Assembly (NCBI GenBank): GCA_048886185.1
Contig: JBHLKY010000004.1
Location: forward strand, 1 to 32,000
Direction: 5' to 3'
DNA length: 32,000 bases
Origin: Candidatus Hermodarchaeota archaeon
GTDB lineage: Archaea > Asgardarchaeota > Heimdallarchaeia > Hodarchaeales > Hodarchaeaceae
Shown: positions 29,673 through 32,000 of the stretch, one piece after another
Numbering within the stretch: the stretch's first letter is position 1
How the letters are laid out: every line of letters begins with the position of its first letter
The notes under the pieces: model-generated
Told to the model about the DNA's origin: nothing
Seen by the model: the letters and a program-made list of their open reading frames with translations, nothing else
The model's database searches: none
Made by a program: the position numbers and the translations under genes

Positions 29673-30698
29673 CTACGTTGAGACTATAGCAAAATCATCT
29701 GGGAATTTCATTTGTAAATAAGCTTGAATCTCCTCTCCATCAATCTGCTCAATGAATATATTTGTTTCTGGAATCTTTATTCTGGTCCAAACTAATAGAT
29801 CTTTACCAATCGAGACACTCTTTCTCATAGAATCAGATTCATTAACTATCAGAATCACAGAGAAATCTGGCTCCTCCACACGGACCAATTTATAATTATC
29901 CGATACTTCATCTTTTCCAGCAGTTTGACTGCGTTTCATCAGGATCTCTTTTACTCCAGCTCCCATTGATGCTTCAGCAAAAGTGTTGACAGCAGAAAAC
30001 ATGCTTGTTAATAGCGCAGGATCATAATGGGATTTTCCTTGAGTGGATGTACTGCTCCCAATTAAAATCCCTGATTCTGTTTGGTAAATACAAACATTAT
30101 AGATGTTGATATTAGGCAGGATAATTTCACCAGTTAACGTTTCTATTAACCAGTCGAATGCTTGATAAAAATTCGTTCCTGTCTTTGCTGACATATGAAA
30201 TATATTAATAGCGCGGAAATTCCCCTTTGTTTGAATATCGTAAAGATCAAAATTTTTAAGTAATGTAACGTAGGGATCTACTCCTGATATATCCGCTTTA
30301 TTCGCTGCTATAAGAAGAACAGCGTTCTCGGGAATATTTGGCATTGCATTATAGAGAGCAGCTCTACTAGATGGAAAACTGCTAGGATTAGAACAATCTA
30401 CCACAAATACTACAGCAGTGGATAATTTCAGATAATCTCCCCAAATCATGTGAAATGACTCTTGCCCACCTAGATCAAATGCTTGAAATTGAACATTTCG
30501 ATATACAAACGAGTCAACATTCAATCCCATTGTTCTTACTGAACTCCCATAGAATTCCCCTGTTCTTAAGCGATGAAGAATGGTAGTTTTTCCTGCATAT
30601 GCTTCTCCTATGAAGGTAATTAGTTCTTGCTGAGGAGGAGTTGCAGTAGCTTTCTCTTCCTTCGAATGACGTCTAAAGAGTCTCTTTAACAGGGAAAT
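29673..30698 (-). CDS. Arf-family small GTPase fused to a C-terminal longin/roadblock-like domain (341 aa, probable ATT start)
   Basis: The frame stays open 56 codons above the track's ATG (30530) and contains the P-loop GEAYAGKTT. Other motifs: G2 RTMGLNV, G3 DLGGQ, G4 NKAD, G5 SAK. GGAGGA SD (30706-30711) lies 7 nt before the ATT at 30698. Confidence 0.85.
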   Translation of the reverse strand: MSLLKRLFRRHSKEEKATATPPQQELITFIGEAYAGKTTILHRLRTGEFYGSSVRTMGLNVDSFVYRNVQFQAFDLGGQESFHMIWGDYLKLSTAVVFVVDCSNPSSFPSSRAALYNAMPNIPENAVLLIAANKADISGVDPYVTLLKNFDLYDIQTKGNFRAINIFHMSAKTGTNFYQAFDWLIETLTGEIILPNINIYNVCIYQTESGILIGSSTSTQGKSHYDPALLTSMFSAVNTFAEASMGAGVKEILMKRSQTAGKDEVSDNYKLVRVEEPDFSVILIVNESDSMRKSVSIGKDLLVWTRIKIPETNIFIEQIDGEEIQAYLQMKFPDDFAIVST

Positions 30699-30765
30699 GG
30701 GTAAATCCTCCAGTATTTGGTGGATTTATTCAATTGAGCTTTTGATACTTTCAACTATAAGAATC

Positions 30766-30787
30766 TACCTCGAGAATTACCTCGAGA
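30766..30787. repeat. Tandem 10-bp direct repeat TACCTCGAGA (period 12) upstream of the Arf gene
   Basis: Exact copies at 30766-30775 and 30778-30787. Confidence 0.5.
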
Positions 30788-31330
30788 GTTATTCTTCATT
30801 CACAAAATAGTTAAAATAAGGTTCGATTAATTATTTCTAAAATGATAAGCAAATTTAAATAGAATAATCAAATTTAGTTTTGACTTTACTATTAGGATAT
30901 ATTCTCTCATCGCTTTATGTGGTTAGGAATAGTTCCTGCTTTTTTGGTTACTACTGGAACAAATTTTACTTTGATTGTGGATACCAAAATAAGAATACAA
31001 AAAAACCTGCTATAAGGTCTGAAAACTTATCTACTTCATTTTTATTTCCTGTTTTCTAATAATTTCTAAAAATTCTAAGTAAATCAAGAAATTGACTAAA
31101 ATTCATAATACTTGTATTTCAAATTTGTTTTCATTGAAACATAAAACTCTTGAAATTTTCCTTTACTGGCATTAAACAAAAAAAAATACTTTACATTTGT
31201 GATTAAGTCTCCCCATAACATCAAAATCCTCCATCCTCAATTCTTCGTTCTGTATTTATCGAGTGTAGGGGATTGGATATCTAATTAACAATCATCTTAA
31301 AAACGAAAGGGATTTAAAGCTTTTTTCATG

Positions 31331-31430
31331 TGCGGAGAAATTCTCTAGAACATCGCTTCTGCCTGTATTTGCGGAAATATTCTCTAGATAGCCTTTTGAG
31401 TTTGAAAATAACAATATTTTATTATCTAGA
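31331..31430. repeat. Spaced direct repeats upstream of the PAS gene
   Basis: TGCGGAGAAATTCTCTAGA (31331-31349) and TGCGGAAATATTCTCTAGA (31370-31388) match at 17/19 positions. A third partial copy ends in TATTATCTAGA at 31430. Confidence 0.55.
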
Positions 31431-31500
31431 TCGGTTTATTCTTTTGCACTCTCAGGAAATAAGAATGTTTAGAATAATCCGTTAAAAAGGTGATTCAGCG

Positions 31501-32000
31501 AGGCGAACAGTTTTAAGGAACAATGAATTATACCCTCAAGAGCAGGTAATTAATTTTATAGACCAGATTATCGGAAATATTACCTCTTCGGGAGTATTTG
31601 TACTAGACCGTAAAACAATGAAGATTATTACTTCTAATGATGATTTTGCCCAAATTCTACGGTATAATTCTGGATCAGACGTTTCTGGACTGACTCTCTG
31701 GGAACTCCTTCTTCCAATGGATATGCAAACACCATTAATGACCTTAAAACAAACAGGGTATTTTCAGGGGGAGGTTCGTGCTTTCACTAAAGGACGAGAC
31801 ATAATTTTGTTAGATTTTACTATCTTAGACATTCATCAATTTAAAATAATCCTTGGAGTAGTTAAAGATATAACTGAACAACAAAAGACTAAAAAACAAT
31901 TAATAGAATCAGAGGCACGGTATCGGGCGTTTGTTGAGAATATTCGAGAAGGACTTATGATTCTAGATGAAGATCAAAGGGTTGTTTTTGTGAATCCAGT
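31501..32000 (+). CDS. Multi-PAS-domain sensor protein, 3'-truncated, start uncertain (absent from the track)
   Basis: Frame 1 is open from 31486 to the window end: SSGVFVLDRKTMKIITSNDDFAQILRY...FQGEV...VKDITEQ...ESEARYRAFVENIREGLMILDEDQRVVFVNP, i.e. PAS-PAC then a second PAS. Confidence 0.85.

Follow-up and report, generated by a model that had tools for sequence, protein, structure and literature searches.

How is an Arf-type GTPase translated when its reading frame offers no canonical start codon ahead of the P-loop? The question is raised by a gene near the end of a 32,000-nucleotide (nt) stretch of DNA from Candidatus Hermodarchaeota archaeon (an Asgard archaeon of the Heimdallarchaeia, Hodarchaeales), positions 1 to 32,000 of contig JBHLKY010000004.1 (contig C4) in assembly GCA_048886185.1, referred to here as the window. 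The assembly comprises 4.84 Mb in 75 contigs, is 96% complete and contains more than 30 small-GTPase matches. On the minus strand of the window, a frame encoding an Arf-like G domain is open from an in-frame TAA to the stop that ends the gene (Table 1). The only canonical start within it is the ATG of Met57, and the P-loop, GEAYAGKT at residues 31-38, lies 5' of that codon. Among the 50 P-loop GTPase-like open frames of this genome, the Arf gene is the sole one that lacks a canonical start 5' of the P-loop. Its GTPase paralogues have ATG-encoded N-termini of the form MS(I/F/V)LS... or MS(V/F/I)..L.R.F.

An earlier, sequence-only reading of this DNA proposed that translation begins at an ATT codon at 30698, 7 nt from a GGAGGA Shine-Dalgarno (SD) sequence, and that this start reveals an amphipathic N-terminal helix. 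Re-reading the minus strand returned the same frame, P-loop, SD and ATT positions, and no ATG, GTG or TTG occurs between Met57 and the upstream TAA. Counted from the GGAGG pentamer, the gap to the ATT is 8 nt. Read from the ATT, the protein has 341 residues and starts (M/I)SLLKRLFRRHSKEEK. The comparison of orthologues described below makes it quite likely that translation of the Arf gene initiates at this AUU and so restores the predicted N-terminal helix.

Start Codons across Orthologues

The comparison of orthologue start codons that the sequence-only reading had suggested as a check draws on 17 genomes of the same genus, one orthologue from each, all colinear with the query starting at residue 1 or 2. 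Seven distinct sequences from a metagenome scan bring the set to 24 orthologues within one Hodarchaeales genus. The codon aligned with ATT 30698 is ATG in 12 of these, ATT in seven, ATA in two, ATC in two and TTG in one. The 11 sequences with ATT, ATA or ATC (collectively ATH) come from independent assemblies and metagenomes and include the closed chromosomes CP070695 and CP070760. In two of them a stop codon stands directly 5' of the start codon, TAA before ATT in orthologue L021 and TAA before ATC in L027. A third orthologue, L026, has a TAG four codons upstream of the start codon with no possible start in between. A TTG that overlaps the SD five codons upstream in L022-L024 was considered as a start and rejected, as the same position is CTG, CAG or AAG, or is cut off by a stop, in the other ATH species.

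The pattern of substitution points to the same codon. In the 11 ATH sequences, codons 1 and 2 (the latter Ser, TCN) never vary at their first two bases but do so at the third, which in codon 1 is T, A or C. This synonymous-type variation, with its period of three from codon 1 onward, carries on through codons 3-10, and the leader upstream of the ATH codon is scrambled except for GGAGG. As read from this alignment, protein-level constraint begins exactly at the ATH codon, where relatives have ATG. Between ATH genes, the ratio of nonsynonymous to synonymous substitution rates (dN/dS) is about 0.05 (range ~0.04-0.08) and dS is saturated; strong purifying selection therefore accounts for the conservation, and the gene is functional rather than a pseudogene. 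The presence of 12 ATG and 11 ATH codons at one homologous position, with stops directly upstream in two orthologues, strongly supports the proposal that initiation occurs at the ATT, with a predicted N-terminal helix preceding the Arf G domain.

The Ribosome-Binding Site

The SD that accompanies the ATH codon is as constant as the codon's first two bases. GGAGG stands 8 nt upstream in all 11 ATH orthologues (9 nt in L053), while the full pentamer is found in none of the 13 orthologues with ATG or TTG, which have GGAG, GGTGG or nothing at the SD position. A full GGAGG is rare in this genome, where it precedes just 64 of 4196 first canonical starts at a distance of 7-9 nt. The spacing of GGAGG ahead of canonical starts peaks at 7-10 nt, and 8 nt is the modal spacing of 4-mer SDs. 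The SD assigned by the earlier reading thus falls inside the genomic peak, so that the ATH codon occupies the position at which the SD sets the P site. In the sequences compared, a change of start codon goes along with a change in SD strength across short evolutionary distances.

The leader may also fold back on the SD. In 10 of the 11 ATH leaders, a CCACC/CCUC tract farther upstream is the partner of the SD in the minimum free energy (MFE) fold. Pairing of the SD with upstream sequence has a probability of 0.80 in this gene and a mean probability of 0.83 over the 11 ATH orthologues, compared with 0.46 in shuffled leaders and 0.34 in the 64 canonical genes led by GGAGG, of which 6% reach 0.80. 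These values are suggestive of an SD sequestered in a predicted hairpin and no firmer than that.

The Protein Read from the Proposed Start

The G domain encoded by this frame belongs to the Arf type by several measures. With 104.6 bits (cut-off 22.3; E 5.4e-30), the Pfam profile Arf (PF00025) spans residues 27-187 and profile positions 17-173 of 174, and outscores Ras, Roc and SRPRB on this protein. All five G motifs are present, GEAYAGKT, T56, the Arf-type DxGGQ motif DLGGQ, NKAD and SAK, and their core residues are invariant in the 17 same-genus orthologues. The best sequence matches in the PDB are 8oul and 8ouk (E 1e-22 for 8oul), followed by Arl1 and Arf1. A first AlphaFold2 (AF2) model, built from 17 close sequences, had a mean predicted local distance difference test score (pLDDT) of 53 and was too poor to use; a model from 53 sequences reached a mean of 77. 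In a fold search with the latter, the G domain matched Arf6 (3lvr_E) with Z 23.3 and a root-mean-square deviation of 2.0 Å over 162 residues, Sar1 with Z 21.7 and HodArfR1 (8oul) with Z 17.7. Other Ras-superfamily folds score close behind, and Arf cannot be told from Rab or Ras by the fold alone.

Upstream of the G domain, both AF2 models place a helix at residues 2-12 or 4-11. Over residues 2-12 its hydrophobic moment is 0.69 for 11 residues, compared with 0.70 for human Arf1, and S2, R6, L7 and R10 are invariant in the 17 orthologues. The restored N-terminus is predicted to form a short basic amphipathic helix like those with which Asgard and eukaryotic Arf proteins bind membranes in a nucleotide-dependent manner; its presence requires that translation begin at ATT 30698 or close to it. 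Residue 2 is Ser, in keeping with the earlier observation that Gly2 is absent and myristoylation not expected.

The C-terminal 147 residues (195-341) have no Pfam match even at E 10. The AF2 model gives them the order beta-beta-alpha-beta-beta-beta-alpha-alpha, which resembles that of a longin domain. Atlas offered a weak roadblock/longin lead for this domain, and the fold matches of the whole model cover the G domain. Two paralogues, on contigs C6 and C17, share the two-domain length, at 318 and 330 amino acids (aa).

Weighing the Alternatives

Several observations weigh against initiation at AUU 30698 and the helix that it would restore. The ATH genes do not form one clean clade in the gene tree: seven make up a well-supported group, and the other four are paraphyletic to two ATG genes, so that two to three changes are needed. 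The test of one clade gave p 0.056 by the approximately unbiased test (p-AU); a single ATH clade is not clearly rejected. In the leader, RNAalifold found neither a consensus structure nor covariation support in the alignment of ATH sequences, and the pairing registers differ between species. The N-terminal helix is short and has a pLDDT below 50 in the models, and its hydrophobic moment is marginal, being reached by 545 of 10,000 shuffles (5.5%). The aragorn survey of tRNA genes is incomplete, with 31 genes when introns are allowed, several of them doubtful (Pyl-cta three times, His-atg and Tyr-ata), and an unusual initiator tRNA may have been missed. The majority of this genome's tRNA genes probably have unusual introns or lie outside the assembly. 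Finally, a CTG or TTG (NTG) Leu codon is present at codon 3 or 4 in 11 of 11 ATH orthologues, accounting for 13 of the 22 codons in seven arrangements, compared with one of the 13 ATG/TTG orthologues. NTG makes up just 16-17% of the Leu codons in the rest of the Arf gene.

This last observation favors the alternative in which translation begins only at the downstream NTG, namely CUG 30692 here and a UUG or CUG at the third or fourth codon in relatives, and ATT-TCC is untranslated leader. Several public gene models (P0002, P0007 and P0008) do begin at that TTG. In three species, including this one, however, the sole NTG is a CTG, which is itself non-canonical. The position varies between codons 3 and 4, placing the SD at 14 or 17 nt, spacings at which canonical starts led by GGAGG are at background (counts of 1 and 2). 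The AT of codon 1 and the TC of codon 2 are invariant although the leader is randomized and dS saturated, and an NTG is not found near the start of the other ATH genes in the genus. Initiation solely at the downstream codon is thus ranked low and considered unlikely, and the enrichment suggests that the NTG may be a nearby in-frame back-up start, or that some initiation occurs there.

A second alternative accepts the public model of this gene, in which translation begins at the ATT of codon 27 and yields a 315-aa protein with no N-terminal helix. The database protein P0001, which begins MTFIGEAYAGKT, is what speaks for it. Ile27 is, however, an invariant internal residue in orthologues that have ATG at codon 1, no SD lies upstream of it, and the ATH lineages show protein-level constraint on residues 2-10. 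A start at codon 27 is very improbable.

The start could also have been lost, leaving a decaying pseudogene or a 285-aa fragment made from Met57 without a P-loop. Met57 is indeed the first canonical start, and automated 285-aa models exist for orthologues. This account is hardly tenable against frames that are intact in 11 ATH lineages at the dN/dS and saturated dS given above, a conserved P-loop and residues 1-56, and an SD kept 8 nt from the ATH codon. A sequencing or assembly error that hides an ATG has nothing to recommend it beyond the rarity of ATT starts and can be given next to no credence, since 11 distinct sequences, assembled independently and including two closed chromosomes, share an ATH at this codon; the ATT is therefore not a sequencing error.

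Probable Near-Cognate Starts Elsewhere in the Genome and Genus

Initiation at the AUU of the Arf gene would not stand alone in this genome. First genome-wide tests for ATH enrichment behind GGAGG gave no signal, because most GGAGG copies lie inside genes and the full SD is rare. Restricting the count to leader codons that precede the first canonical start by 10 codons or more changes this result: with GGAGG exactly 8 nt upstream, six of 17 are ATH against a background of 11% (p 0.007), the Arf gene being one of the six. With 4-mer SDs, ATH peaks at 8 nt with an excess of about 20, and CTG has an excess of about 9. The control codon groups AAH, TTH and ACH have no excess, and that of GTH is weak (about 7). 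By this estimate, about 20-30 genes of the genome, roughly 0.5%, appear to start at AUH or CUG.

Three further families show the pattern of the Arf gene. An alpha/beta hydrolase (L062; C26:20801-21691, plus strand) and an FAD-binding amine-oxidase-like protein (L065; C33:27903-29186, plus strand) have ATT starts, and an iron alcohol dehydrogenase (L064; C6:183268-184353, minus strand) has an ATA start, each 8 nt behind GGAGG. In all three the Pfam domain begins before the first canonical start, and the FAD-binding oxidase would lose its GxGxxG motif if translated from that codon. Their orthologues flip between ATT, ATA or ATC and ATG, TTG or CTG at one codon, with GGAGG again at 8 nt. Three iron alcohol dehydrogenase orthologues (L112, L114 and L115, from genomes G002, G018 and G020) have CTG at the start position behind GGATG. 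In G018, where a stop lies one codon upstream, this CTG probably serves as the start.

Further candidate ATA, ATT or ATC starts behind GGAGG are found on the minus strand at four loci (L063 and L066-L068), at C8:125255-126883, C16:59569-62229, C8:47318-47977 and C44:8554-9441. They encode a membrane protein of 543 aa, a methylase of the Eco57I/MmeI type with 887 aa, and two smaller products. In this genome, the aIF1/SUI1 gene (G000 C8:191858-192070, minus strand; L080) has an ordinary ATG start, its product beginning MGSNCKTCG...

ATH starts are thus a recurrent, low-frequency habit of the genus and are therefore not special to the Arf gene, which weakens the case for a gene-specific regulatory device. 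The sequence-only reading had suggested that expression may be tuned by weak initiation; such tuning could still operate, as an inference from the weak codon.

Consequences for Public Gene Models

The sequence-only reading anticipated that standard annotation would give a truncated protein without a P-loop. This holds for several orthologues, for which 285-aa models begin at Met57 (P0017, P0018, P0035 and P0037), but not for the gene itself, whose 315-aa model P0001 keeps the P-loop and loses the helix. Other models start at the TTG of codon 3 or 4 (338-339 aa), at a TTG or GTG that falls within the region of the SD (344-347 aa) or, in CP070760, at an upstream ATC (352 aa). None of these starts agrees with that at ATT 30698. 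The orthologous group is represented in databases by at least six N-termini (285, 315, 338-339, 341, 344-347 and 352 aa), most of which lack or distort the helix. Surveys of amphipathic helices in Asgard Arf proteins, and cloning, will misjudge such proteins unless the start is corrected.

Comparison with Known Systems

Bacterial AUU starts behind a strong SD are known from E. coli infC, which encodes IF3, and from pcnB. In these genes and in the Arf gene alike, AUU takes the place of AUG, is conserved across species, lies behind a strong SD at optimal distance, and causes standard gene finders to truncate the gene. The Arf gene differs in that it resides in an archaeon with aIF1, aIF1A and aIF2 and no IF3, and in that its codon flips between AUU, AUA, AUC and AUG within one genus, co-varying with SD strength. 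The autoregulatory logic of infC is not evident here, as the gene encodes a GTPase rather than an initiation factor, and aIF1 itself has ATG.

The protein also has known relatives. Hodarchaeales and Gerdarchaeales Arf proteins without Gly2 need their N-terminal helix for membrane binding, in yeast and on liposomes (10.1101/2024.02.28.582541; PMC11914678). These include HodArfR1 and GerdArfR1, whose structures are PDB 8oul and 8ouk (bioRxiv 10.1101/2024.02.28.582541), and the AArfs (PMC11914678). Like HodArfR1 and the AArfs, the protein described here comes from the Hodarchaeales lineage and has an Arf-type G domain (DxGGQ, NKxD, SAK) and a short N-terminal helix, here predicted, without Gly2. 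It differs from both in its extra C-terminal domain of ~150 residues and in a helix that is shorter and more basic. It is a different paralogue, and the alignment with 8oul spans the G domain only. Start codons are mentioned in neither paper (10.1101/2024.02.28.582541; PMC11914678), and orthologues like this one may therefore have been scored from truncated models.

In ribosome profiling of Haloferax volcanii, about 30% of putative alternative initiation sites were near-cognate; the authors put these aside and did not validate them (PMC7261190). What the Arf gene would share with those sites and with near-cognate initiation in eukaryotes is the acceptance of initiator tRNA at a codon one base from AUG. 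In contrast to both, the near-cognate codon here would be the main, conserved and SD-dependent start, neither a minor alternative nor a codon reached by scanning. Conserved AUH starts of Asgard archaea were not described in the library searched. On the comparative evidence, the near-cognate start of the Arf gene is very probably genuine, of a known general kind, and on a known kind of protein.

Proposed Mechanism and Broader Reading

In the mechanism proposed for the Arf gene, the SD would pair with the 3' end of 16S rRNA and set AUU in the P site. Initiator Met-tRNA would pair with the A and the U and tolerate the mismatch at the third base, which would allow AUU, AUA and AUC to interchange. 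The protein would begin Met-Ser-Leu-Leu-Lys-Arg-Leu-Phe. The full 5-nt SD, present only in AUH lineages, would compensate for the weak codon, and output may in addition be set or buffered by the predicted SD-occluding hairpin together with the CUG or UUG at codon 3 or 4.

A broader reading is tentative and rather doubtful as a whole. It holds that AUH, along with CUG, behind a full GGAGG forms a regular but labile class of starts in Hodarchaeales that exchanges with AUG within the genus and co-evolves with SD strength, and also that the weak codon, the hairpin and the back-up NTG keep an Arf-longin-like GTPase, as a membrane-remodelling switch, at a low or conditional level. Taken together, the Arf gene and the three further families of the genus suggest that AUH is accepted by an archaeon whose initiation factors are of the eukaryotic type, provided that a strong SD positions it. 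Hodarchaeales are the archaeal lineage placed closest to eukaryotes. The stringency of start-codon selection in the closest archaeal relatives of eukaryotes thus becomes testable on defined natural sequences.

Features of the Locus and Its Upstream Region

The features of the Arf locus are collected in Table 1.

Table 1. Features of the Arf gene and its leader, in coordinates of the window
Feature	Coordinates	Strand	Basis
Complete coding sequence: N-terminal helix, linker, Arf-type G domain, C-terminal alpha/beta domain; 341 codons plus stop (29673-29675)	29673-30698	-	Open frame, Pfam, orthologue colinearity, dN/dS
ATT, proposed start (near-cognate AUU)	30696-30698	-	Orthologue alignment
Shine-Dalgarno sequence GGAGG	30707-30711	-	Invariant in ATH orthologues; spacing
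Predicted hairpin pairing the SD with an upstream pyrimidine-rich anti-SD, AAUCCACC	30702-30728	-	MFE fold
In-frame TAA that closes the frame upstream	30726-30728	-	Sequence
CTG codon 3 (Leu3), possible auxiliary or rival start	30690-30692	-	Orthologue comparison
Residues 2-12, SLLKRLFRRHS, predicted short cationic amphipathic helix	30663-30695	-	AF2 models, hydrophobic moment
P-loop GEAYAGKT (G1)	30585-30608	-	Sequence, orthologue alignment
ATT codon 27, start in the public 315-aa model (rejected)	30618-30620	-	P0001
ATG Met57, first canonical in-frame start	30528-30530	-	Sequence
Putative promoter: two CTCGAGGTA copies (30786-30778, 30774-30766), then TATA-like TTATAG (30760-30755)	30755-30786	-	Inferred
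C-terminal domain, residues 195-341, longin-like element order	29676-30116	-	AF2 model

Between the Arf gene and a divergent gene starting at 31618 lie ~890 nt of intergenic DNA (30729-31617). All open frames in this interval stay below 60 aa, and Rfam gave no match in 30600-31700. A sigma-70 promoter scan was at chance level, the sigma-70 model being not relevant to archaea. The putative promoter region is marked by two copies of CTCGAGGTA 12 nt apart, each with the palindrome CTCGAG, adjoined by the TTATAG about 60 nt before the ATT. CTCGAGGTA is not over-represented genome-wide, with 15 copies found and about 18 expected, and the pair may be a gene-specific regulator site beside the promoter. 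A block resembling CTCGAGGTAG...TTATAG is kept upstream of many orthologues.

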